Origin: Nitrospirota bacterium
GTDB taxonomy: Bacteria > Nitrospirota > Thermodesulfovibrionia > Thermodesulfovibrionales > UBA9159
Direction of reading: 5' to 3'
DNA: 64,000 bases
Assembly (NCBI GenBank): GCA_963699545.1
Contig: CAVOUE010000012.1
Coordinates: forward strand, 1 to 64,000
A program made the translations under genes and the position numbers. How positions within the stretch are numbered: position 1 is the stretch's first letter; every line of letters begins with the position of its first letter. Shown piece after piece: positions 3,145 through 47,889 of the stretch. The notes under the pieces are model-generated. The model was not told the DNA's origin. It saw only the letters and a list, made by a program, of their open reading frames with translations, and did not search any database.

Positions 3145-3501
3145 TCATCCGCCTGAGCGTTTCGGTCTGTAGCCCATCTTCCCCAGCGCCGCCATGAGCG
3201 CGTCGCAGTGGTCGCCCTGGATTTCGAGCGCTGCATCCCTGGTCGTGCCGCCTGTACCGAGCCTCGCCTTCAGCTGCTTCAGCAGCGCCTCCCTTTCCTT
3301 CTCCGCCATCGTGAGGCCCTCGATGACCGAGACCGACTTCCCGCCCCTGCCCTTCCGGTCAAGCCGGACAGTCACCTTCTGCGGCGCAGGAGACAGGCCT
3401 GCCTGGAAAGCCTTCTCGACAGCCCTCGCCTTCCGGGTTTTGTCTGGCAGGGGCAGCTTCTGATCTGTGGAATAGACTAATTTAGATCGTTCATCGGGCA
3501 C
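3145..3501 (-). CDS. yciH: SUI1/YciH translation initiation factor
   Basis: LVYSTD, RKGRGGKSVSVIEGL, LKARLGTGGT, LEIQGDH. Confidence 0.9.
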   Translation of the reverse strand: MPDERSKLVYSTDQKLPLPDKTRKARAVEKAFQAGLSPAPQKVTVRLDRKGRGGKSVSVIEGLTMAEKEREALLKQLKARLGTGGTTRDAALEIQGDHCDALMAALGKMGYRPKRSGG

Positions 3502-3537: not shown

Positions 3538-3671
3538 TGTTAATTCTCACCCAAATATTGCCCCTTTTCTCATTGAAAACTGACCCCCATTCGGGTGCGG
3601 AGTATATCGACACCTAAACACTACAGAGGAATCAAGGGACTCACAATTTTCAAAAGAACTCCGCGCCCAAG
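3538..3671. mobile_element. 134-bp repeat, copy A, with IS21-like terminus
   Basis: Starts TGTTAATTCTCACCC; contains TTTCTCATTGAAAACTGACCCCC identical to copy B; ends TCCGCGCCCAAG. Confidence 0.7.
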
Positions 3672-3894
3672 CAAAATCACGGTCCCAATGCACATCCTGG
3701 AAGAAACGGACAGAGATTGCGATGTTCAAGAAAAGTTTCAACCGAAAAGAAACTCTTATCGGAAGCTTAGAGCCACGCTTGTCTGTCTGTTGGAAGATCT
3801 CTTACGACGCAATGATACCGGGTCACTTTCAGCCGTATTGCATTCCTATTAAAGCTTTGTTATAGTAGTACCACAATACTATCGTGGAGGAAAG

Positions 3895-5130
3895 ATGCTG
3901 GACGATCTCTTCAGGCTCAGTCAGAATTTTATCAGGACACACAGGCAGGATTATGTACGTTACTTCCTGAAGGCCAACCCACTGAAAAGCCGCTTCTCCA
4001 TAATAATAGGGCAAAGGGGTGTTGGAAAGACTACTGCAATGATCCAGCATATCCTCGCTTTCTCAAAGAAAGATACCTTTAGCGCTGAAGCTATTTATGT
4101 CCAGGCAGACCACTTCCTTGTCGGAAGGCAATCCCTGTACGAAATTGCAGAACAGTTTTATAATCTCGGCGGCAAGCTCATCTGTTTTGACGAGATTCAT
4201 AAGTATCCGAACTGGTCGGCAGAAATGAAGAGCATCTATGACACATTTCCCGGTCTTATGATAACTGCGTCTGGCAGTTCGGCACTTGAAATCTATAGGG
4301 GAAGCCATGACCTCAGTAGAAGGGCTGTCATTTACAGAATGTACGGCATGTCCTTCAGGGAATTCCTTGAACTTTCTCTAGGCATCGAGCTTAAATTCAT
4401 TAGTATTGAAGATATTGTGGGCAATCACCAGCGTTCCGCAGACCACATTATCAGTGCCGTCGAGAAGAAACATAGGAAGGTGCTTGCCCTATTTGCTGAA
4501 TACCTAGAATACGGCTATTATCCTTACTTCAGGGATTATAAAGACAAAGTCCTTTTTTATCTCACTTTGGAACAGAACATCCATACAACGCTTGAAAGCG
4601 ATCTTATCGCAATATACCCATCGCTTAGCGGAAACAGTATCAAGAAACTGAAGAGGCTGCTTTCAATTATCGCTGCATCGGTACCTTTTACCCCTGACCT
4701 AAAGAAACTTAAAACGCTGCTCGATGTCGGAGATGAAAGGACCTTGAAGGCTTATCTTAAATACCTTGAGGATGCAGGGATTATCCTGACAGTTTCGAAG
4801 TCGGGGAAATCTATGAGGGCGCTTGAGAAGCCAGAAAAAATATACCTTAATAACCCGAATCTTATTTATGCCGTCAAAGACCGCGAAACTGCTGATACCG
4901 GCAACCTGAGGGAAACCTTCTTTCTGAATATGGTTCGCACCCTTCATAAAGTGTCTGTCCCGACAGCCGGTGATTTCTTGGTCAATCACAAATATACTTT
5001 TGAGGTGGGGGGCAGGAGCAAGAATTTTTCTCAGATCAAGGATGTGAAGCAGTCGTTTCTTGCCTTGGACGGCATCGAGATAGGAGCAGGCAACAAGATA
5101 CCGCTTTGGCTCTTCGGATTTCTATATTAG
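3895..5130 (+). CDS. AAA_14 ATPase with C-terminal DUF4143-like domain
   Basis: Walker A GQRGVGKTT, Walker B FDEIHKY, SGSSAL, EKIYLNNPNL, FEVGG. Confidence 0.85.
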   Translation: MLDDLFRLSQNFIRTHRQDYVRYFLKANPLKSRFSIIIGQRGVGKTTAMIQHILAFSKKDTFSAEAIYVQADHFLVGRQSLYEIAEQFYNLGGKLICFDEIHKYPNWSAEMKSIYDTFPGLMITASGSSALEIYRGSHDLSRRAVIYRMYGMSFREFLELSLGIELKFISIEDIVGNHQRSADHIISAVEKKHRKVLALFAEYLEYGYYPYFRDYKDKVLFYLTLEQNIHTTLESDLIAIYPSLSGNSIKKLKRLLSIIAASVPFTPDLKKLKTLLDVGDERTLKAYLKYLEDAGIILTVSKSGKSMRALEKPEKIYLNNPNLIYAVKDRETADTGNLRETFFLNMVRTLHKVSVPTAGDFLVNHKYTFEVGGRSKNFSQIKDVKQSFLALDGIEIGAGNKIPLWLFGFLY

Positions 5131-5184
5131 AATGAACCCTCGGCACTGACAAATGCCGACCTTAAGAGAACTGGCAATAAGACA

Positions 5185-5613
5185 ATGAAGATGCTAAGAA
5201 TACAGTCATTAGACAAGCGGTGGCATGACAGGGACGAGATCCTTTTACATACAACTTTTCAAGTGCTGGTAGATTTTATAGAAAAGGAGCGCCCTGACAG
5301 AGTCATCGACTGGAGTTCCGATGAAATCCACAAGCACGCGTGGAAGGAAATGAGAGCCCTATACAAATGGTGGACGGAAATAAGGCCAGCTCGACGGAGT
5401 CCACTGGACAACAAGAGGCTATCCGTCCCACCATTGAAGTCTGAGAAGATTGCCGGCACGGACTCTTATCGAATAATCAAGCCCAACAGAAGGAAATATG
5501 CAGCGTTCTATAAGGCGCTGAAAGTGCATAGCTGGTTAGAACAGAAATGGTTTGAAGAAGATCAGCGCAATCTTCATCGACTTATCGACATTAGAGGCTT
5601 TCTCTGGACATAA
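5185..5613 (+). CDS. Hypothetical protein
   Basis: 142-aa ORF, Trp-rich, ends LHRLIDIRGFLWT. Confidence 0.7.
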   Translation: MKMLRIQSLDKRWHDRDEILLHTTFQVLVDFIEKERPDRVIDWSSDEIHKHAWKEMRALYKWWTEIRPARRSPLDNKRLSVPPLKSEKIAGTDSYRIIKPNRRKYAAFYKALKVHSWLEQKWFEEDQRNLHRLIDIRGFLWT

Positions 5614-5675
5614 AGGGCGAACGTTGAAGGCAACTGTGCGGGATTATCTCTTAAGCACGTGCATCCATTAGCAAC

Positions 5676-5809
5676 TGTAAATGCTCACTGAAAAGTGACC
5701 CTCTTTCTCATTGAAAACTGACCCCCGTTCGGGTTCGGAGTTCACCGACAACACTGCACATTTCAATTTATTGCAACAGTAAAGATTTTCGAGAGAAATC
5801 CGCGCTAAC
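5676..5809. mobile_element. 134-bp repeat, copy B, with IS21-like terminus; other end at attC R' GTT
   Basis: TGTAAATGCTCACTGAAAAGTGACCC followed by CTCATTGAAAACTGACCC (tandem sub-terminal repeat); ends at GCTAAC (GTTAGC on minus). Confidence 0.75.
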
Positions 5810-5882
5810 AAGTTGGGTTGAGCGGCGGATTAGGATTACCGTTTGATGCAATTCCGAGATTTCTTTTAAAGACCTATTAGAA
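5803..5882 (-). other. Degenerate attC site (right arm recognisable, left arm pairs poorly)
   Basis: Minus strand after the stop of 5877..7073: ...CCGCCGCTCAACCCAACTT GTTAGCG. Confidence 0.45.
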
Positions 5883-7073
5883 ATCGAAAATGCCTTCGAT
5901 ATCGGATATGTCAGCTGGCATCCAGGGATAACGTGGACAACCTGCAACAACGTCGCTTGTAAAAGAATGCGCGCCCCAGTATTCATCTGGGTCACTGGGC
6001 TCATAAGGTCGTGACAAGTCTTCGTAATGGTGAATCCAACGACCTTTAGCACCTTCTTGCCCGGCTTGCCACCACGACATTCCGGATGCTGGCTCTACCA
6101 GACTGCCACGTGCCAAACTGTCTTGCGACAGAAGGTCGCACTCTTCAGATACTTTAAGTAGAATATTCGACAACTCTTTCGCAATCTTTTCACTTTGGGC
6201 GATAAGGACATCTTTTCGGAACACAAGATTCATGTCTTTACTGATAATCACTTCAGAATTTTCATCGATTAAGGGATAAGAAAGTGACTCACTTATGTAG
6301 GTCACGTAATCTCTAATTCCGCTGTAATTAGAAAGAATAGCCGGAGGATTAATTTTGACAAGCTGATAATGGTAAAAATTTTCAGAGCTTTTATAATTAT
6401 TGAGAATCGGCGATTTGAAAGTGAGTTTTATATTTACCCACTCCTCATTTGCACTGTAGAATGGCGTTGTAATAATTTGCTTTGTACCTAAGGTGCTAAT
6501 TGACTGATACCATGTTTCGGTCGTATTTGTTGGAACCCGTAAGGATTGTGCGAAAAGGTTTGCGAGACATGCTTCGACCCCAAGCAACGTATGCCTGGAA
6601 TTCTGCTTTACTACCCCAACGTCTTCGGCCCTCATTGGACGAAAATGGGCAAGAGAGTTTCGAATAGTACCTATTTCAAGTAGCTTGTTCTTTATGATTT
6701 CCTTGTTTCCCTTAAAGTGTCCTTTAAATTTCGGCCAGTACGCATCTGCCGTAATAAGTTCTACCAACTCACCGCTCGTTAAGTGCATCAGACGAGCTTT
6801 GATATCAAAACCGAGATATCCGAAGTTGTCTGCCTGAGTAATACGCTTAGCCGAGACGCTCTTGATGTTAGCCGTGTTTCCACCAGGCATTGAGAAGTTG
6901 CACTCTTCCCATTTGCTCGAATATTCGTTCTTCAATATCGCATAGACAAACACGCGCAAAGAGTTTTCGAAGCGAAAGAGAATGTTCAGTGCTTCGTAGT
7001 AATGGATGTGTAGCCATCTTTTGGGTATATTGACTAGGCCTTGATCATTTTTTGTGGCAGGTTTCCATTCCAT
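5877..7073 (-). CDS. Gene cassette: Swt1-like HEPN domain protein
   Basis: FENSLRVFV, LTSGELVELI, RNSLAH (RxxxxH); AT-rich; preceded by attC R'. Confidence 0.7.
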   Translation of the reverse strand: MEWKPATKNDQGLVNIPKRWLHIHYYEALNILFRFENSLRVFVYAILKNEYSSKWEECNFSMPGGNTANIKSVSAKRITQADNFGYLGFDIKARLMHLTSGELVELITADAYWPKFKGHFKGNKEIIKNKLLEIGTIRNSLAHFRPMRAEDVGVVKQNSRHTLLGVEACLANLFAQSLRVPTNTTETWYQSISTLGTKQIITTPFYSANEEWVNIKLTFKSPILNNYKSSENFYHYQLVKINPPAILSNYSGIRDYVTYISESLSYPLIDENSEVIISKDMNLVFRKDVLIAQSEKIAKELSNILLKVSEECDLLSQDSLARGSLVEPASGMSWWQAGQEGAKGRWIHHYEDLSRPYEPSDPDEYWGAHSFTSDVVAGCPRYPWMPADISDIEGIFDF

Positions 7074-7125
7074 AAACGATTCTCCTTGGCAGATTTAATA
7101 AATTTTCATGCTGTCATAATGGACC

Positions 7126-7214
7126 AGCTAACGACCTAAATGAGGCGCAGGGGCAATTAGCACTTGCAAAGACCATAGTGGTTATTCACTGTCGCCTCGA
7201 TTTTGTTGTTGTGT
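7126..7214 (-). other. Integron attC site (89 bp)
   Basis: Minus: R'' ACACAAC, arm AAAT[C]GAGGCG[A]CAG pairs with CTGCGCCTCATTT leaving two unpaired bases, R' GTTAGCT. Confidence 0.85.
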
Positions 7215-7979
7215 GGCAATTTTTTCCATTTGTTCCCTGACTATGTTTTGGTAACAACGGAAGCACGCTACGGCTCTTTCATGCTGTTCGCTCAATTTGA
7301 GAATGACATCTTTAAGCTCCAAAGGTTTGCTATATCCGAAGGCATATGCTATAGGGCCGGTATTAGTTACATGCCGAGTCATAATTTTCGAGAGTCCAAA
7401 CTCGATATGAGAAGGAAACCGATGATGATATTGATTTCGGTAATCACCGACAGCATTCTGATATTCCTTGTCCGATAATCGTTCCAGTGCTTGTTTTAGT
7501 TTATTATAAGACTGCCAATTTGCTGCATACTTATCCATTATTGAAAAATAAATCTGATCATCGGCTGGTAAATCATCTTTCCAGTCTCGCCCTAAAATAG
7601 TTCGATTCGCCTGGTGACTTAACTGAGTGACAGAAAAAATAAAACGCGACCGTATTACATAAGGTAAATTGATGCACATGCTGCAAAGAGGTTCGATGAA
7701 TTCATGAATAACATAAAAGCGCTCTTCTTCTGTGTATTCAAGGATAACTTTGGCCCAGGCAGATAGTTTATCAATATAAAGTGAGAGCTGATTTATGACA
7801 TTGGCCAGCTCGGTTGCATGATCTTCGAGCATTTGGAAGTATGGGAAATATAGCATCAATTCTCCCGAAACGCTCTTTGGCAGATTTAGCCAGTTAAAAG
7901 GTAATGGTTGACCCGATATGCTTTTGCTTAATTCAGACCGAAAGTGACTGTATATGGCTATGTATTTATCGTCTTCCAT
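7182..7979 (-). CDS. Gene cassette: putative HEPN-domain protein
   Basis: YRNQYHHR (RxxxxH) in a helical-looking 265-aa ORF; reads into its own attC. Confidence 0.6.
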   Translation of the reverse strand: MEDDKYIAIYSHFRSELSKSISGQPLPFNWLNLPKSVSGELMLYFPYFQMLEDHATELANVINQLSLYIDKLSAWAKVILEYTEEERFYVIHEFIEPLCSMCINLPYVIRSRFIFSVTQLSHQANRTILGRDWKDDLPADDQIYFSIMDKYAANWQSYNKLKQALERLSDKEYQNAVGDYRNQYHHRFPSHIEFGLSKIMTRHVTNTGPIAYAFGYSKPLELKDVILKLSEQHERAVACFRCYQNIVREQMEKIATQQQNRGDSE

Positions 7980-8030
7980 TCATTTGGGTCGCGGAGTTTA
8001 TTAATAAATGATCGGTTCATATTTTCCTCA

Positions 8031-8115
8031 ATCTAACGAGAAACATCACTGGCAGCGGCAACCACAATTGATTTCGTCGCCGCTATTCGCTGTCCAGTGG
8101 ATTTGGTTGTTCAGT
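8031..8115 (-). other. Integron attC site (85 bp)
   Basis: Minus, directly after the TGA at 8116: R'' ACTGAAC, arm AT[C]CACTGG[A]CAGCG pairs with CGCTGCCAGTGAT, R' GTTAGAT. Confidence 0.88.
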
Positions 8116-9099
8116 TCAATTTCGTGAACCGAGCTCAAGTATTTCTTTGTTCTTTGTGTTAAAGAAATGTCCTTTCTTTATGGGTCTACGCTCTCCCGAA
8201 TAATCGCGGGACAGACATATAGTATATTTGACCCAATTAAAGAGCGATACCTGACTAACAATAGAGACATTATCTGCCGCCCAATTCACAGTTACGATAT
8301 GGCCAAGTCTCCTACTGCCTCCTGTTTCATCTGCCAAAATCGGTTCGGCAAGAACGTCGACTATCGGATATAAGGCAGTTTCGTCATAACGAATATATCT
8401 CCGAGTAGTGTTGAAAGTCTTTTGACACATAAATTCACTATCTTGCCAATATGCAAAATAGTTAAAGGCAACTTTTGATATTGCACGAAATATTTTTCTA
8501 TCTATTGTTCCTTCAATTTGATAAAGCAAAGTATCGCTTTCATGTCTTGGAATAAATTCGCCGCCTGAATTAAGAGAGATGCCTTTCTCCCTAAGTTTAT
8601 CTTCCAGTCTTTTCATATCCATTCCGTATGATCGTATGCCATGCGGATTGCTGAGCTCGAAATTCTCTTCCAAGTATTTCTTGTCAGGTACTTCATTTAA
8701 CAAGTAGTAGACGTACTCATCTGCATTAGGCTGTTTGAATCCCATTTGAGGAAGAGGTTTAAGCACAATCTTATTACTGCCTGGCGAATATTCGCGGCAA
8801 GCAAATATGCCCTTCAAAGGCCCTCCTGCAACACGGATTATTAATCTACTCTTCTTGCCGTAGGATTTATAATTATTAGCGGCCTTCACATTAAATTCGA
8901 ATCTCGATTGACCCTCGTAAGTGTCGCGTGCCAGATCGAGCTCTAAATTTTCTCCGAAATATTTATTGCAATCATTGCAAACCACCTTTTTTAAAGTGAA
9001 ATTATTCTTGAATACTCCAAACGATTGTGGAATCACATGCTCCGTATTGGTAAATGATTTTATAGGTTTACTCTCCAAACAATATATGCATTTTGTCAT
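8116..9099 (-). CDS. Gene cassette: HNH endonuclease (HNH_5-like N-terminus)
   Basis: CIYC...EHVIPQSFG...VCNDCNKYFG. Confidence 0.8.
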   Translation of the reverse strand: MTKCIYCLESKPIKSFTNTEHVIPQSFGVFKNNFTLKKVVCNDCNKYFGENLELDLARDTYEGQSRFEFNVKAANNYKSYGKKSRLIIRVAGGPLKGIFACREYSPGSNKIVLKPLPQMGFKQPNADEYVYYLLNEVPDKKYLEENFELSNPHGIRSYGMDMKRLEDKLREKGISLNSGGEFIPRHESDTLLYQIEGTIDRKIFRAISKVAFNYFAYWQDSEFMCQKTFNTTRRYIRYDETALYPIVDVLAEPILADETGGSRRLGHIVTVNWAADNVSIVSQVSLFNWVKYTICLSRDYSGERRPIKKGHFFNTKNKEILELGSRN

Positions 9100-9117
9100 A
9101 AGATTAATCCTGAGTTA

Positions 9118-9286
9118 CTGAAACACAACAATGATTATACGAACTTCCTGTTTGCTGTCCTCATGGGCTAAATATAGCATAGCCGGGGAAAATTCTTAAA
9201 GGGCAATATTCAATAAAATCAACAGGGCAAGATATTCTACTTTTCGCATTTTGCGGTCATAAGGACTAAAGGCGAAGTTCGTATAA
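9118..9286. repeat. Perfect 13-bp inverted repeat; left copy lies in a 28-bp dif-like site
   Basis: TTATACGAACTTC (9135-9147) / GAAGTTCGTATAA (9274-9286); minus 9145-9118 reads AGTTCGTATAA TCATTG TTGTGTTTCAG. Confidence 0.7.
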
Positions 9287-9486
9287 CATGGAAAATTTGT
9301 GCGGCCTTGATTCCGGGAGTACTTTGCAGTCCTCGATCTGATGCCGTCAGCGCGGGTTTCAGGAAGGAAATCGCAAGGGCGTTGGGATCAATTTTTAGAG
9401 GGAAAGCCGCCCCTGCGGACCTATCATCTTCCTGCCTTCCGGACCATGCTGCTTCTGCACGTTTCCACTTGACCGGATTCTTTCAC

Positions 9487-9614: not shown

Positions 9615-10839
9615 ATGGAATTTCAAACGTTTAATTTTCACCCCCACATCGCTGCCGGGGTAAAGGCAGCTGGCTTTGTAACGCCAACACCGATCCAGGA
9701 ACAGGCGATCCCGCCGGTCCTCCAGGGAAAGGACGTCATGGGCCTTGCCCAGACCGGCACGGGCAAGACAGCGGTCTTCGTGCTGCCGATCCTGGAGCGG
9801 CTGATAAGCGGACCGCGCGGCCGTATCCGCGCCCTCGTCATTGCGCCGACGCGCGAGCTGGCAGAGCAGATCAACACCGCCGTCGGGCATCTGGGCCGCC
9901 AGACACGGCTGCGGAGCATCACTATTTACGGCGGCGTGAGCTATGAACCCGCAGATACAGAAGCTGCGCGCCGGTGTCGAGATCGTCGTGGCCTGTCCGG
10001 GCCGCCTGCTCGATCATATCAATCAGGGAACGATCAACCTTTCGGGCGTAGAAGTGCTCGTCCTGGACGAGGCGGACCGCATGTTCGACATGGGCTTCCT
10101 GCCTGATATCCGGAAGATCATCAGACACGTGCCTGCCAGGCGACAGACGCTGTTGTTCTCGGCAACCATGCCCGATGATATCCGGCGGCTGGCCCACGAG
10201 GTCCTGCACGCCCCGGTCACGGTGCAGGTCAATCACGCCGCGCCCGCAAGCACGGTCTCGCATGCCCTCTACCCGGTCGATCAGCACCTCAAGACCGCGC
10301 TCCTCCTCGAACTGCTGCGGCATACCGACACGGAGTCGGTCCTGATCTTCACGCGCACCAAGCACCGCGCCAAGCGCGTGGGGCAGCAACTGGAAAAGGC
10401 CGGCTACCGGGCCGCATCGCTTCAGGGGAACCTGTCGCAGAACAAGCGCCAGGCGGCGCTGGACGGGTTCCGGGACGGCTCATACCAGATCCTTGTGGCG
10501 ACCGACATCGCGGCCCGCGGCATCGATGTCTCAAGCATATCCCACGTCATCAACTACGACATGCCGGATACGACCGACGCGTACACGCACCGGATCGGCC
10601 GCACCGGCCGGGCTGCGAAGACCGGCGATGCCTTCACGTTCATTACCCGTGAAGACGAGGACACGGTGCGCAGCATCGAGCGCGTCCTCGGCGAAAAGAT
10701 AGAGCGTCGCACTGCTGGAAGGCTTCGATTACGAAAAGCCCGCGCCGGCGCGCGACATCGAGTTTGCCCGCCCGCGCGCGTGAACCGCAGCGCCGCCGGA
10801 AGAACGGCAGTGCACAAGTGCGGACTCACTCCCGGGTAG
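9615..10839 (+). CDS. rhlE: DEAD-box RNA helicase (RhlE-like); frameshifts near 9940 and 10715, 3' end uncertain
   Basis: PTPIQ, AQTGTGKT, PTRELA, LDEADRM, SAT, ARGID, HRIGRTGR. Confidence 0.85.
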
Positions 10840-10987
10840 TGACCCATGGTTCAAAAGCAGGACAACGGTCCGACGGTCCGGTGACACGGAAGCACAAAAG
10901 CTAAACAGTCCACGGGAAAAAGCCCGACAGACATTCCTTCGGCTGACTCAGTGCTTCCCTTGAAAAGAACTGCTCTGCTCAGGAACT

Positions 10988-11482
10988 ATGAGAAACCCAT
11001 TACATAGCAAAGCAAGGGTATCACCGCATATTACCCCCGAGGGGCACAAGCGTTTAAGTGAGGAACTGTCATATTTGTGGAAGGTGAAGCGCCCCCAGGT
11101 CACTCAAGCTGTTGCTGAAGCTGCTGCCATGGGGGATCGTTCTGAGAACGCGGAATACATTTACGGAAAAAAACAGTTACGGCAGATCGATTCCCGCATT
11201 CGTTTTCTTGCAAAGAGATTGAGCGAACTGATTGTCGTGGACAGGATACCTGATAATACTTCAAAGGTGTTCTTTGGCGCATGGGTCGCACTTGAGGATA
11301 CTGACGGGAACGTACAACGGTATCGCATCGTCGGCCCTGACGAGATCGATCCTGACAGGAGTTTCATCAGCATTGATTCACCCATGGCCAAGGCATTGCT
11401 GGGAAGGGCAGAGGGAGACGAGGTTATAGTGTCCAGACCTAACGGCACTGCTGCTTTTCTTGTGACATCCATCCATTATTAA
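10988..11482 (+). CDS. greB: Transcription elongation factor GreB
   Basis: ITPEG, LWKVKRPQVT, GDRSENAEYIYGKK, ISIDSPMAKALLG. Confidence 0.92.
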   Translation: MRNPLHSKARVSPHITPEGHKRLSEELSYLWKVKRPQVTQAVAEAAAMGDRSENAEYIYGKKQLRQIDSRIRFLAKRLSELIVVDRIPDNTSKVFFGAWVALEDTDGNVQRYRIVGPDEIDPDRSFISIDSPMAKALLGRAEGDEVIVSRPNGTAAFLVTSIHY

Positions 11483-11577
11483 GTGCACTGTCTGCCCCGC
11501 GCTCTTAGTTCAAGTGTTTTGCCTTCTCTGCTATAATCTTATTGGTTGTATCCTATGCATGCCACAAGGAGCCGGAC

Positions 11578-12555
11578 ATGAAAAGAAGTGCAGGGCTCAC
11601 AGTCCTATCGCTGCTGGTCCTCTCGGGTTGCGCCTTCAACTTTTCCCTGACGCCAGGGATGAAACCCCTTGAAGAGAAGGTGATCGAGGGTGAGGGCTCG
11701 CCCAAGATACTCCTTGTGGACCTTGACGGCGTAATCTCATTCAAGGAGGAAACCGACCGCCTGAAGCTCAGGACAAGGCCCTCGAAAGTCGCCTTTTTCA
11801 GGGAAGCACTCCGCAAGGCCGAGGCGGACCCTGACATCGCCGGCGTGATCGTGAGGATCAACTCGCCGGGAGGCAGCGTTACCGCAAGCGACACCGTATA
11901 CCATGAGATCATGAGTTACAGGAAAAAGAAGAAGGTACCTGTGAACGCCTATATAATGGAGCTGGGCGCCTCGGGAGGGTATTACATCGCAGCAGCAGCC
12001 GACCGTATCATTGCAAGTCCGACCGCGGTCACGGGCAGTATAGGAGTCATCGCCATGAAGTTCAACGTCGAGGGGCTTCTTGCGAAGATAGGGGTATCGG
12101 AGGAGACCTATAAGTCAGGACCGAAAAAGGACTTCTGGTCTCCCTTCCGTCCCAGCACGGATGAAGAGAAGAGGATGTTCCAGGATATAATCGACCGGCT
12201 GTATGCCCGCTTCGTCGGGGTGGTCTTCGCGAACAGGCAGAAGGTTCTCACCGAAGGAGAGGTGAGGGCCCTTGCAGACGGGCGCGTGCTTACCGCCGGG
12301 GATGCCCTTGAGGCGAGGCTCGTAGACGAGGTAGCATATCTGGACGAGACCGTCGAGGCGATGAAAGAGTCTCTCAATATTCAGCAGGCCAGAGTGATAA
12401 CCTATGTCCGCCCCAAGGCCTTCAAGTCGAACATATACTCAGAATATGACGACCTGCCCCCGTCGGGCCCACAGGTCGTAAACCTCATTTCCATAAACGC
12501 GGAGGACCTTCCCTTCTTCTCGGGGGTGCAGTTCATGTACCTCTGGAACCCTTAG
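11578..12555 (+). CDS. sppA: Signal peptide peptidase SppA (S49), lipoprotein
   Basis: LSGC lipobox, RINSPGGS, ASGGYYIA, TGSIGV. Confidence 0.9.
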   Translation: MKRSAGLTVLSLLVLSGCAFNFSLTPGMKPLEEKVIEGEGSPKILLVDLDGVISFKEETDRLKLRTRPSKVAFFREALRKAEADPDIAGVIVRINSPGGSVTASDTVYHEIMSYRKKKKVPVNAYIMELGASGGYYIAAAADRIIASPTAVTGSIGVIAMKFNVEGLLAKIGVSEETYKSGPKKDFWSPFRPSTDEEKRMFQDIIDRLYARFVGVVFANRQKVLTEGEVRALADGRVLTAGDALEARLVDEVAYLDETVEAMKESLNIQQARVITYVRPKAFKSNIYSEYDDLPPSGPQVVNLISINAEDLPFFSGVQFMYLWNP

Positions 12556-24274: not shown

Positions 24275-24708
24275 GTATGTTCATTTTACCGAACATAATC
24301 ATCATCCCTTTCTTTTTACGACCTTACTACGTGCAGAACCTTGATTCTGCACCTTTCTTGATTCCAATATACAATATGTTGCACAGATTAGCAACTCGGA
24401 AACTTACTCCTCTTGGCGGAGATTTTCCGGAATTTCTCCTGAAAACCGTAAAATCGCTTTTTTTACGAAATTCTCAGCCCGTTGCCCCTGAATTTCGCTT
24501 CTTGCCCTATGCTTGGATACTTAGCTCAGTACGCACAGAGGTGAATCTCGACTGAGGTCCGAAACATGGGCGGGTAGTGTCCTTCCTGGAGTCTTCACAT
24601 AGTGGGCATGATATAATGGTGCAGGGTACAAACTGAAATCGGTTGCATTTATGAAAGATCCAGTGATATTGTTTTCATCGCATGGAATAATGCGTTTCTG
24701 TCAAGCGT

Positions 24709-25974
24709 ATGCTTTATACAAAATCGGTCAAAGAAATTAGTTATCAAGATGTTCTGGATTTTTGTAATTCAGGTCATGAGGAAGGTTTCATTCTTGAATA
24801 CAAGAAAGATTTCCCGAACAATGAAATTATCGCAAAGACCATTGCTGCTTTTGCTAACACTTTTGGTGGGCTGCTGATTATCGGCGTGAATGCGCCTGCG
24901 GGGAAACCCATTCCTCCTTTTGAAGGAATTACTTTTGACCCGCTTCAAAAATATGAAGAAAAAATCGAAAATATAGTGCTGTCTCACATCAGAGAACCGA
25001 TATTTCCGGAGGTCCGCGTTTGTGATCCAGTAAACGGTAAGACGTTCATAGTGGTTCGCGTCGAAGAAAGCCATTTGACTCCTCATAGGGTTTCAAAAAA
25101 TACAAGAACTTACGTCCGAACAGGACAAAACAGTACGCCTAGTGAAGAGGCTACATGGGACAAGATTGAGTGGCTCGCCACAAGAAGAACAAAATCCGAT
25201 GGACTTCGAGAGATTCTAATTAACGAATCTGAGCGTTATTTTTGTGATGCATGCAAATTGCGCGGCATAGATGTCAGCGACAAATCACACTACTTTGCTG
25301 TGCTTTCATTGAGGGCCATCCCGCTCTTCCCCCAGAACCCTCTTATTCCTTACAAAGACATGGCGAGTATAGAGAATGACATTAGGATTCCTGGGAATAG
25401 ACCTTTTCCGGTCAGATTCTACAATCCCGATTTGATTCAAAATGGCGTCCGCAAATTGTCTTTCTCTAGTGGTGAAAAACCAACCCATGGTGTTGCGTTT
25501 GAGTATACACATCTCAACACCTTTGGCCTCTATCTTTGGAAAGGGGATATTGGCGAATTAGAAAAAAAGGAAATCAAAGAACAGGACGGTGCCACTTCGT
25601 CGATTATGATCAGGCGATTGGATTTTTATCGCATCCTATATGCCCTATATGAATTCCTCAGTTCCTCAGCTCTTTTCTATAAGAAGCTTGGCTATTGGGG
25701 CTCGATACAGGTTGTGGTCGAGCTTAAGAATGGTCTTGGTGTGCGCATAGAACATCCTTTAAGAAGTACGATGTTCGGCGTCTCAGAAGATTTGGAAATA
25801 CCGAGCGATGACTTGAAATGGGAAAAAGTGGTGTCTTCCATATTTCTTCAAGACAGAAAGAGGGAATTAACAGTGGAAATGCTTGATGCTATCGGATGGT
25901 CGCTTAATATTAGGCATCTGAATGAAGAGCATATCAGGAAGGGTTTGGATGCGAATTTTGGCATAGAAAAATAG
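24709..25974 (+). CDS. AlbA_2 (Schlafen-like) domain protein
   Basis: EGFILEYKKD...IAAFANTFGGLLIIGV, YVRTG; AT-rich. Confidence 0.85.
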   Translation: MLYTKSVKEISYQDVLDFCNSGHEEGFILEYKKDFPNNEIIAKTIAAFANTFGGLLIIGVNAPAGKPIPPFEGITFDPLQKYEEKIENIVLSHIREPIFPEVRVCDPVNGKTFIVVRVEESHLTPHRVSKNTRTYVRTGQNSTPSEEATWDKIEWLATRRTKSDGLREILINESERYFCDACKLRGIDVSDKSHYFAVLSLRAIPLFPQNPLIPYKDMASIENDIRIPGNRPFPVRFYNPDLIQNGVRKLSFSSGEKPTHGVAFEYTHLNTFGLYLWKGDIGELEKKEIKEQDGATSSIMIRRLDFYRILYALYEFLSSSALFYKKLGYWGSIQVVVELKNGLGVRIEHPLRSTMFGVSEDLEIPSDDLKWEKVVSSIFLQDRKRELTVEMLDAIGWSLNIRHLNEEHIRKGLDANFGIEK

Positions 25975-26076
25975 CGGAATGATAACCAAGTGTCTTCTTG
26001 TAATTCACGTTTCACAAAAAAGTAAAGATGATGTAGAGTAGAACCAGAAGTCTATCGTGGGAATGGGAGGTGTAGC

Positions 26077-26349
26077 GTGAAAATATTAGTTTTGGTAATG
26101 TTAGTGGTGCTGTCAGTGCCGTCAGTATCATTCGGATGCAGGTTTGACGTGGACTGCGACATTGGACAGAGATGCGTAAAAAGCTCGATGCAGAATGAGG
26201 GAAGGTGTATGTCAGCCGATGATTTAATCAGAGATAACAGGTCTACTACTAATCCTGTCAACGTCCAACCAGCTAGGCCTCCAAGAGGCCCGTTGAGCTG
26301 TCCTCCAGGATATATTTACGACTGGAATAGCCAGACTTGTACCAGATAA
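26077..26349 (+). CDS. Small secreted Cys-rich protein
   Basis: GGAGG RBS, signal peptide, six Cys. Confidence 0.6.
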   Translation: MKILVLVMLVVLSVPSVSFGCRFDVDCDIGQRCVKSSMQNEGRCMSADDLIRDNRSTTNPVNVQPARPPRGPLSCPPGYIYDWNSQTCTR

Positions 26350-26514
26350 GAAATTTGATAGATACCACGCTAAATACGTTGGAAGGTATCATCCTAATGC
26401 TGTCAAATGTCGCCTCTCGCACCTCCGCAGCTGTCCCGGACAGCGTGTCTTTATGGCTTTTCCTTCGTTCCCGTTGTATATTCAAACATCGACCTTAAAA
26501 GGAGGGACGCAACT

Positions 26515-26742
26515 ATGTCTTATTCTTTGGAACTCAAGTCAGTCGGACCCAAAGCTGGGGACCCGCCGGGATCTGCACTATCTCACATTTACATTAAGCA
26601 TAACCACGGCACAGATAAGGACGGCGATATTATCATCACTGCCGATTGTTTCGGCCTATCCGCAATGGAAAGAGAGATTGACCGGCTTATAGAAGAACTC
26701 AAAGACATCAGGGAAAAGGCAAAGCGCCTTTACAAAAAGTAG
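26515..26742 (+). CDS. Small hypothetical protein
   Basis: AGGAGG RBS; C-terminal amphipathic helix EIDRLIEELKDIREKAK. Confidence 0.6.
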   Translation: MSYSLELKSVGPKAGDPPGSALSHIYIKHNHGTDKDGDIIITADCFGLSAMEREIDRLIEELKDIREKAKRLYKK

Positions 26743-26858
26743 GGTGCACTATGGGAATCCCCGTATTACTTCATCAAGAGAATGGAGCCGGAGCCGGCTT
26801 CTCACGGGAGACCGCAACCCTCGTAAGGCGACTCGCCACGAAAAATGGAGGGAATAAT

Positions 26859-27284
26859 TTGAAAGCGAAATCATCAATTATAATTCTATGTGTACTGTTT
26901 GTAATCTTTGTGCACTCGTTATCTTCTTTTTCCGAAAACCGACCGACGAAACTCCCCGCCGGTGCACAACCTTATACTCCTTCCCGGTTAGAGTGGCTTG
27001 CTCTTGAATTGAACGCTGAACAACGAATAGAGCTGTCTGAAGAAAGTGGCTTTGCCATGACTTTCGTCCCAGTGGAGAACGAAAACGCCATTCTTATTTT
27101 TGTCAGGTATCTTGAAAATGTGAACCGCGAGATTATGAATACGAACATAGATACCGCAAGAAAGGTTATTTCTATGAAGGCAAAGTCGCATGGATGGGAT
27201 TCATGGCTAAAGGTCAAGGAAGATGTGCAAATGTCAAAACCGCGTGTTGGCGATGTTACGCACAAGCCTGGAACAACAAAATAG
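26859..27284 (+). CDS. Exported hypothetical protein (TTG start)
   Basis: GGAGG RBS before TTG; hydrophobic N-terminus; PYTPSRLEWLA. Confidence 0.6.
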   Translation: MKAKSSIIILCVLFVIFVHSLSSFSENRPTKLPAGAQPYTPSRLEWLALELNAEQRIELSEESGFAMTFVPVENENAILIFVRYLENVNREIMNTNIDTARKVISMKAKSHGWDSWLKVKEDVQMSKPRVGDVTHKPGTTK

Positions 27285-27352
27285 GGTCAGCGCCTGTTTA
27301 AAACACGAGGCTGCCCAACCAGTTGTCCCGCCGCGAAGCTGCTGAACTCATT

Positions 27353-27440
27353 ATTGCCGCTGATTTCTTCCGAAAATCGTCACTGTTGCAATTAGCTGAA
27401 CCACGTTTGTAAGTCGGTGTACTCCTTATGCAAGGGGCTG
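27353..27440 (+). repeat. Truncated copy C of the 134-bp element
   Basis: GATTTCTTCCGAAAATCGTCACTGTTGCAATTAGCTGAA...GTCGGTGTACTCC aligns with copy B minus strand GATTTCTCTCGAAAATCTTTACTGTTGCAATAAATTGAA...GTCGGTGAACTCC. Confidence 0.7.
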
Positions 27441-27490
27441 ATTGATACTTGTCTGCCAAGCCGTAGGATGCACAAAAACCAACCCTCTCA

Positions 27491-45675: not shown

Positions 45676-45752
45676 TGGCAGGCCAGGAGGGATTTGAACC
45701 CCCATCCCTCGGATTTGGAGTCCGATGCTCTAGCCGTTAGAGCTACTGGCCT
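45676..45752 (-). tRNA. tRNA-Trp (CCA)
   Basis: Minus AGGCCAGTAGCTC...CTCCAAA...GGTTCAAATCC...GCCA. Confidence 0.95.
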
Positions 45753-45836
45753 ATTCCTCATTCAGTCCCTGAGTCTCCTGTCCTGAGCCGACAGAAAAGA
45801 CCTCCTGTATCCATGACTGCTGATTATCAACTGTCG

Positions 45837-45989
45837 CTATGCCTTTGTCTCCTTGTGCATCGTGTGACGCCTGCAGGTCCTGCAGTATTTCTTTATCTGT
45901 ATCTTGTCGGTGGTATTCTTCTTGTTCTTCATACTGGAATAATTCCGGTTCTTACATTCCGTGCATTGAAAAAGTATTATATCTCTCAT
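45837..45989 (-). CDS. rpmG: 50S ribosomal protein L33 (Zn-binding type; not in ORF track)
   Basis: Manual translation [50 protein letters not shown]. Confidence 0.95.
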
Positions 45990-45995
45990 GGTCGT

Positions 45996-47200
<1,205 letters not shown>

Positions 47201-47295
47201 CTTCCTCCTTCCTCAATGAAGCACCTAGTACTGTCAGTCTCTGACATTCACCTGCATTACCGATCATCAGCTCGATACCACGCCTGCCACATTCA

Positions 47296-47371
47296 TGGAG
47301 CCCATGACCGGAATCGAACCGGTGACCTCATCCTTACCAAGGATGTGCTCTGCCGACTGAGCTACATGGGC
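47296..47371 (-). tRNA. tRNA-Thr (GGT)
   Basis: Minus GCCCATGTAGCTCAG...TTGGTAA...GGTTCGATTCC...TCCA. Confidence 0.95.
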
Positions 47372-47473
47372 ATTCTCAAGGCAATGAGCAATTAGCTATC
47401 GGCGCTCGGCTTCCAGCTAAGATCGTATTCTTCATTACTGACAGCTACATCGCTGACTGCTGATCACTGTCTC

Positions 47474-47548
47474 TGGAGCGGGAAACGGGATTCGAACCCG
47501 CGACCCTCAGCTTGGAAGGCTGACGCTCTACCACTGAGCTACTCCCGC
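47474..47548 (-). tRNA. tRNA-Gly (TCC)
   Basis: Minus GCGGGAGTAGCTCAG...CTTCCAA...GGTTCGAATCC...TCCA. Confidence 0.95.
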
Positions 47549-47654
47549 ACTCATTGCCTGTGCTCAGTTTGTCGAGTTTATTAGCCCGGCGTATACGTGC
47601 CCGCCATACGCCCAAACTCAGAAACAACTCCATCACTTAAACTCTCTCAGCATA

Positions 47655-47739
47655 TGGTGGAGAGGGGAGGATTTGAACCTCCGTAGGCTACGCCAACGGG
47701 TTTACAGCCCGTCCCCTTTGGCCACTCGGGTACCTCTCC
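47655..47739 (-). tRNA. tRNA-Tyr (GTA)
   Basis: Minus GGAGAGGTACCCGAGTGG...CTGTAAA, long variable arm, GGTTCAAATCC...ACCA. Confidence 0.95.
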
Positions 47740-47813
47740 ATCTACTCTCGGGGTTGGGTTGAGGATCGGTTTTTCACCAATCCCAAAATCCTAATCCCTG
47801 CCACCTTCTCAGT

Positions 47814-47889
47814 TGGAGCCACCGAAGGGAATTGAACCCCCGACCCGCTGATTACAAATCAGCTGCTCTGCCAGCTGAGCTACGGTGGC
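47814..47889 (-). tRNA. tRNA-Thr (TGT)
   Basis: Minus GCCACCGTAGCTCAG...TTTGTAA...GGTTCAATTCC...TCCA. Confidence 0.95.

Follow-up and report, generated by a model that had tools for sequence, protein, structure and literature searches.

A 134-bp repeated element in a Thermodesulfovibrionales family, possibly an IS21-type transposon end of non-autonomous cargo units

Elements of the IS21 family are defined by istA (DDE, rve fold) and istB (AAA+) genes located between their ends, by termini of the form 5'-TG ... CA-3', by multiple sub-terminal repeats, and by target-site duplications of 4–8 bp. Passenger genes can also be carried between IS-type ends lacking a transposase gene, as in the mobile insertion cassettes (MICs), of which those described derive from IS231 or Tn3 and have good inverted repeats. 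In class 1 integrons, the placement of attI is the reverse of a geometry in which the conserved part lies 3' of cassette-like genes. Finally, according to one account (PMC8649781), the ends of Tn7-like elements are marked by arrays of TnsB sites, defence genes are typical of their cargo, whole or partial integrons are present in 10% of them, their hosts include Nitrospirae, and multiple ends arise from adjacent insertion.

The locus described here lies in a window of 64,000 nucleotides (the whole stretch of DNA analysed) from a Nitrospirota genome of 3.04 Mb that is 87% complete. The window contains repeated copies of a 134-bp element, which we tentatively read, with the balance tipping slightly against us, as the IS21-type transposon end of non-autonomous cargo elements in a family of the Thermodesulfovibrionales. 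The coordinates of the features are collected in Table 1; identities, boxes, and junctions were all counted by eye on alignments.

Table 1. Coordinates and strands of the features discussed, in window positions.
Feature	Position	Strand	Remarks
Left chromosomal flank, SUI1-family gene	3145–3501	-	
Copy A	3538–3671	+	Degenerate left end (LE) of unit E1; from the repeat with B and the insertion boundary against the empty site
E1 cargo, AAA_14/DUF4143 ATPase	3895–5130	+	
E1 cargo, 142-aa ORF	5185–5613		Follows the ATPase gene; no Pfam family
Putative E1 distal end	5650–5667	+	..GCACGT..CCA, by analogy with E2; weak
Copy B	5676–5809	+	LE of unit E2
Copy B terminus	5676–5682	+	TGTAAAT
Copy B 18-mers	5684–5701 and 5707–5724	+	
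Copy B core	5743–5809	+	CACCGAC at 5743–5749
Copy B dyad	5784–5800	+	GATTTTCGAGAGAAATC
Copy B closing box	5802–5809	+	GCGCTAAC
E2 cargo span	5877–9099	-	GC about 0.40
E2 cargo, Swt1-like HEPN protein	5877–7073	-	Under Pfam cut-off
E2 cargo, 265-aa ORF	7182–7979	-	
attC-like hairpin	8035–8115	-	Only one in the window; z = -0.73, not distinct from shuffles
E2 cargo, HNH_5 protein	8116–9099	-	
E2 distal end	9346–9467	-	Imperfect inverted partner of B; right boundary from empty-site homology
Right chromosomal flank, DEAD-box helicase gene	ends at 10839		
E3 distal-end motif	24329–24338	-	TTCTGCACGT; precise E3 end undefined
E3 cargo span	24709–27284	+	GC 0.43–0.46
E3 cargo, Schlafen/AlbA_2 protein	24709–25974	+	
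E3 cargo, two ORFs of no family	26407–26742 and 26751–27284	+	
Copy C	27353–27474	-	Inverted LE of unit E3; BLAST E = 4.7e-5
Copy C core	27419–27354	-	Putative terminus TGTGCAT at 27474–27468; 18-mers absent

Copies A and B are direct homologues in one orientation, as the earlier note had reported from the letters of the sequence. Positions 3538–3612 and 5676–5750 form a direct repeat of 75 nt at 80% identity (E = 1e-13 for the pair in a BLAST of the whole 3.04-Mb genome), both copies start with TGT(T/A)AAT, and the stretch quoted in that note as identical is also common to both. The tandem sub-terminal repeats that it saw in B were borne out as 18-mers beginning at 5684 and 5707. A search of the 3.04-Mb genome with the 18-mer pattern returned three exact matches, every one inside A or B, and three additional matches with three mismatches, the reversed-pattern control giving 3 + 3. 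Copy A is made up of a TGTTAAT terminus, one decayed 18-mer and one intact one, and a decayed core.

The third copy that had been claimed, C, does exist, but it is inverted rather than co-oriented with the other two (inverted pair 5762–5811 and 27351–27400, 78% identity). Instead of being truncated, as had been thought, it appears to be a different end variant that runs to a TGT at 27474–27472, with its likeness to B confined to the inner half and no 18-mers. Whole-genome BLAST gave it E = 4.7e-5, and the inner motif at up to three mismatches had seven matches in the genome versus none for the control. On reading, five of these seven were true copies and two (C6 and C3:706335) were not; a copy on C10 and the degenerate A come on top of the five. 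A count of three copies is thus too low, the core alone being present about six times in the genome. Similarly, the GTTAGCG box, which had been taken as the junction of a last cassette and special to B, belongs to the conserved element itself. The observation made in the earlier note is, as a whole, partly confirmed.

The element is built of two modules, an outer one, in which the TGT terminus precedes 18-mers spaced by 23 bp, and an inner core of about 65 nt that has CACCGAC at its start, a small dyad (GATTTTCGAGAGAAATC), and a ..GYGGTAAC box at its end. Read inward, the order is TGT, then none, one or two 18-mer boxes (CTCAyTGAAAAsTGACCC, spaced by about 23 bp), then the CACCGAC box, which is a related third box, and beyond it about 50 more conserved bases that close with the dyad and the ..GYGGTAAC box. 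A sharp TGT start with unrelated upstream DNA was found in six independent copies (A, B, G003:C89, G009:C218, G065:C3, and the metagenome contig L196). The TGT terminus and the repeated sub-terminal boxes are real, and the proposal that the element is the end of a mobile element is supported. Most copies consist of the core only, with an identical first base (CACCGAC). Boxes at the end of a family IS21 copy (G003:C88, below) make sense of such core-only copies, in which the CACCGAC box comes first, some 15 nt from a TG; B-type ends have two further boxes outward of it. Three copies have the outer module but lack the remainder of the core; of these, L196 and G004:C44 stop at CCGAC and G065:C3 has no CACCGAC. 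Genera other than that of the window, and one metagenome contig, also contain the outer module, with similarity opening exactly at TGT and unrelated upstream DNA each time, and a metagenome scan with a short terminus pattern found the second box too in one of 118 stretches (L196).

Regarding its spread, 8 of the 18 other genomes in this Thermodesulfovibrionales family gave a BLAST match to the core, as did 1 of 42 genomes from elsewhere in the order, and a profile detected it in 12 of the 19 family genomes (own genome counted). Among 47 matches of the core pattern in public contigs, about 16 came from Nitrospirota/Thermodesulfovibrionales; the remaining matches fell in unrelated phyla and are about as many as estimated for chance alone (some 26). 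Tandem co-oriented copies were seen in three cases, namely A/B, positions 691896 and 695219 of G000:C3, and G015:C353.

In G001, a genome of the same genus, 177 nt without any element separate the SUI1 and DEAD-box helicase genes, and the homology of the window to this empty site restarts just right of 9467. From this empty site it follows that the window from about 3538 to 9467 is an insertion, which we read as two tandem co-oriented units, E1 (3538–5667) and E2 (5676–9467), separated by an 8-nt spacer (5668–5675) between the putative distal end of E1 and copy B. It is a discrete insertion without a transposase, as in a transposase-less passenger cassette, with a second end that is only partly convincing. 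The GC content dips to 0.40–0.46 across the insertion, and once more at 24–27.5 kb, where E3 lies, a third unit in inverted orientation. One end of E3 is at 27474, and the far end is assumed to lie near 24329 from a motif in common with the other units. No orthologue of the gene flanking E3 was found in the same genus, and the ends of E3 are therefore not independently defined. A single large transposon running from B to C was considered and rejected, since housekeeping genes (GreA, SppA, DEAD helicase, PilT-like, and others, at 9.3–24 kb) lie between E2 and E3, so that B and C are not the ends of one transposon. The cargo genes of E1 to E3 are defence-like, and no recombinase genes were found among them. 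When the cargo-side ORFs were scanned at eight further copies, no transposase was found, and the sole recombinase was a resolvase in L079.

Several features of these and other loci were observed in passing. Inside E2, GTTATACGAACTTCG and an inverted partner (15 nt, 9133–9147 and 9273–9287) lie in the non-coding DNA 5' of the HNH_5 gene, and the half-sites of this repeat bear what we take to be a loose likeness to Xer/dif arms. The resolvase of L079 is a small serine recombinase (4843–5502, Resolvase + HTH, 219 aa) located 640 nt from a core copy and directed towards it. In L314 (G065:C3), genes at 9690–12217 for a 353-aa tyrosine integrase and a 377-aa DUF4143/AAA_14 ATPase stop 3 nt ahead of an outer-module-only copy; a DUF4143 ATPase is also found upstream of copy B, an association that may be a coincidence. 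The cargo adjacent to the core in L097 (4268–7115) consists of a Fur-family regulator and a catalase-peroxidase of 776 aa, and in L172 (2674–3280) two small ORFs adjoining a core copy form, by reading of the DNA, a putative toxin–antitoxin pair, with a RelE/HigB-like toxin and an HTH antidote.

The far ends of the units were less uniform, with little conservation from unit to unit and 18-mers mostly absent. That of E2 has a ..TTTCCA terminus reaching 9467, the motif CTTCTGCACGT at 9452–9462, an 18-mer-like box at 9384–9402, and an arm at 9346–9372 that matches 5784–5809. Compared with B, identities amounted to 8/12 in the terminus, 17/28 in the box region, and 13/15 in the arm. An exact TTCTGCACGT is present at the cargo far end in E2, in E3, and in a unit of G008, and in only 4 of the 168 loci examined, one of the four being an unrelated Bacillus locus; the far end of E1 has GCACGT only. 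The alignment of the left end of E3 with its far end was unconvincing. The far ends of E1 and E2 are readable as ..CCA, with positions uncertain by about 6 nt, and no target-site duplication was seen in the flanks of E1, of E2, or of the E1 + E2 pair. As A and B are just 80% identical and the elements old, such duplications could have decayed.

Three real IS21 copies of the Thermodesulfovibrionales family were available for comparison with these ends. Two of them (G014:C22 and G003:C66) have two terminus-adjacent boxes 23–24 bp apart, with sequences that differ from the 18-mers. At the istB-proximal end of the third (G003:C88) there are two boxes of the 18-mer consensus, each after CACCGA, and 31 of 63 positions (49%) are identical to B; we regard this likeness as suggestive and not as proof of cognate binding. 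The element thus resembles the IS21 family in its TGT terminus and in its at least two sub-terminal boxes phased at about 23 bp, a plan common to the family IS21 copies, and these multiple sub-terminal repeats are predicted to serve as transposase sites. In contrast to IS21 elements, the units hold passenger genes and neither contain nor adjoin istA/istB, their second end is weak, target duplications were not seen, and a conserved extra segment of about 50 nt follows the boxes.

The search for a cognate transposase gave a mixed picture. True IstB genes are present in about 10 of the 19 family genomes, and IstB, full or fragmentary, occurs in 9 of 12 core-positive versus 2 of 7 core-negative genomes, a co-occurrence that is just a hint because the genomes are kin. 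Neither istA/istB beside any copy nor an autonomous copy was found, and in G003 and G015 IstB and core never share a contig. IstB is absent from the genome of the window, where the lone match was partial and fell in a 460-aa frame that is found in every family genome and was taken as DnaA. The rve genes of this genome are IS3-sized or Tn7-like, and the window's contig gave no match to rve, IntI, or IstB, in agreement with the earlier statement that neither istA/istB nor intI is in the window. In the complete genome G061, three core copies coexist with no rve matches. Of 13 core copies from five further genomes, two have a tyrosine recombinase and three an IS3-sized rve gene within 10 kb, inconsistently placed. 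The IS21-type reading put forward in the earlier note is plausible, given that the architecture of the end matches that of family IS21 copies, although no autonomous istA/istB copy accompanies it; taken as a whole, the interpretation offered in that note is partly supported.

Under the IS21-type reading, the element would be the terminal recognition region, at one end, of an IS21-type, DDE-transposon-like lineage that in this genome may survive as transposase-less units with passenger genes. A cognate IstA-type transposase, encoded elsewhere, would bind the phased boxes of both ends and move the unit in trans, and repeated insertion at one place would give tandem, co-oriented units such as E1 and E2. 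We infer the binding of transposase to the boxes, the IS21 type, and the present or past mobilisation of the units in trans. Such units recall MICs and other transposase-less IS derivatives, with IS-type ends around passenger genes, no transposase, and presumably movement in trans; unlike them, they have asymmetric ends, defence-type cargo, and a Nitrospirota host. If the IS21-type reading is right, a poorly studied, uncultured family would spread defence-type genes on small units that have no mobility gene and rely on an outside transposase, and further cargo such as katG or toxin–antitoxin pairs would travel likewise. Defence islands in these genomes would then be easier to delimit, and the 18-mers and an IstA-type enzyme would constitute a testable DNA–protein pair.

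The sharp junctions and the occasional attC-like neighbours leave room for a coupling of transposition with site-specific cassette capture, and the element could also be, in a reading that we consider unlikely, a site-specific recombination module. It would then form one or more arms of a site of att type or like that of an integron, served by a tyrosine recombinase made elsewhere; crossovers would occur where the modules join (TGT, CACCGAC, and the ..TAAC / GTTA.. box), and modules and cargo would be swapped as cassettes. An alignment of 21 rows is consistent with this, as similarity opens at CACCGAC in the rows without the outer module, ..TAAC is the end of conservation in 12 rows, and a GTT(A/G).. 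box lies 45–75 nt past it in 8 rows by eye, four of them strictly following the consensus used for this count, GTTRRRY, versus about one by chance. The lack of visible target duplications, the three tandem co-oriented cases, and the two outer-module-only copies (of three) that stop at CCGAC would fit as well, as would a strong hairpin between the ..TAAC and GTTAGCT boxes of L097 (z = -5.1) and the presence of IntI over cut-off in 5 of the 19 family genomes, both congeners among them. Across these 19 genomes, however, the presence of the core does not go with that of IntI: G001 (2.8 Mb) has three IntI over the NCBIfam cut-off (C160, C126, and C86) and no core, G003 and G015 have five cores each and zero IntI over cut-off, and none over cut-off was found in the genome of the window (87% complete). 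A tyrosine recombinase lies within 10 kb of only 2 of the 13 core copies in the five further genomes, on different sides, the candidate crossover sequence is missing from the left junction of the island, and the conserved part is 3' of the cassette-like genes. The earlier proposal of an attI-like half-site, or of the 3' conserved segment of an integron, was not upheld, and the core as attI was discarded, since at the intI locus of G014, the only one read, no element lies upstream of or adjacent to IntI. The attC-like remnant that had been placed beside copy C folds no better than shuffles (z = +0.57). The hairpin listed in Table 1 has ..AAC and GTTAGAT boxes at its flanks and a single bulged base in its 11-bp stem; the three intergenic stretches of the window compared with it gave z values from -0.07 to +0.57. 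The element shares with attI/attC sites and CALINs the ..AAC / GTT.. box at the inner boundary, hairpins that sometimes follow it, and one attC-like hairpin in the cargo; it departs from them in having neither an adjacent intI nor a single-strand fold such as that of attC, in the conservation of its primary sequence rather than of structure, and in its missing correlation with IntI. The papers found on integrons and attC in Nitrospirae do not describe the element. We regard the integron/attI reading as weakly supported and a link to cassette recombination as conceivable but secondary. A hybrid platform specific to this Nitrospirota family, in which an IS21-type end has a conserved inner GTTAC-type box acting as a secondary landing site for integron integrases, is a long shot; if it were true, cassettes and defence genes would gather behind a trans-moved transposon end, linking two mobility systems.

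It is quite improbable, in our estimation, that the element is instead the end of a Tn7-like, Tn5053-like, or Mu-like element with a TnsB/TniA-type transposase, whose cargo and partial cassette arrays would lie beside the left end, as in Tn7. Tn7 too is built with phased sub-terminal boxes behind a TGT terminus, and the genome of the window does hold a Tn7-like element with a TnsA–TnsB fusion, a TniB-like ATPase, and TniQ. The end repeats of that element are nevertheless different (TGTCGC..AACCATA type), with no 18-mer nearby, and it was rejected as the mobiliser on account of these unrelated repeats. TniQ is found in just 3 of the 19 family genomes, all three among the 12 that are core-positive, and in none of them does it share a contig with the core; no 5-bp duplication was seen. 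Phased TGT-end sites, defence cargo, and cassette-like genes aimed at the end are common to both (PMC8649781), whereas no tnsABC/tniQ is linked to any copy of the element. The idea that the core is a small gene for a peptide of about 22 residues, or else a regulatory sRNA, riding on the islands, its end-like features being secondary, seems very remote. In 14 aligned copies the core has one open frame, with the TAA of the ..TAAC box as its stop and the consensus HRLTxVVQxIATVKIFER, some changes look synonymous, and one deletion in the core is of 3 nt. Yet this frame has no start codon, stops lie immediately upstream in several copies, it is broken in five of the six indel-bearing rows of the 21-row alignment, and third codon positions are not enriched for variation. 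The 30 copies listed from the 19 genomes are all in frames of 18–108 aa, four with an internal stop, and a C-terminal remnant of a longer protein was rejected because none of these frames exceeds 108 aa. As for an RNA, no fold beats shuffles, and Rfam gave only a sub-threshold match to CRISPR-DR6 (19 bits versus a gathering score of 39). We likewise set aside a structured site in RNA or ssDNA, six single-strand folds giving z values from -1.72 to +1.81 and Rfam nothing at the gathering score. Judged by eye against the consensus sequences, the spacing suited neither a promoter of the sigma-70 or sigma-54 type in the core nor an Xer/dif-type site at the termini, and these ideas were dropped.

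The Tn7-like element of this genome is located at about 569.7–577 kb of G000:C3 (L190, 6766–13815), beside a tRNA gene read as tRNA-Leu. Its genes encode a TnsA–TnsB fusion of 922 aa (TnsA_N + rve + Mu-transposase C), a TniB-like AAA ATPase of 364 aa, and a TniQ of 467 aa; its left end opens with TGTGTCGCGG.. and has repeated GTCGC..AACCATA boxes, and a LexA-like S24 peptidase gene adjoins it. Within the window, five clustered tRNA genes are encoded on the minus strand at 45679–47889.
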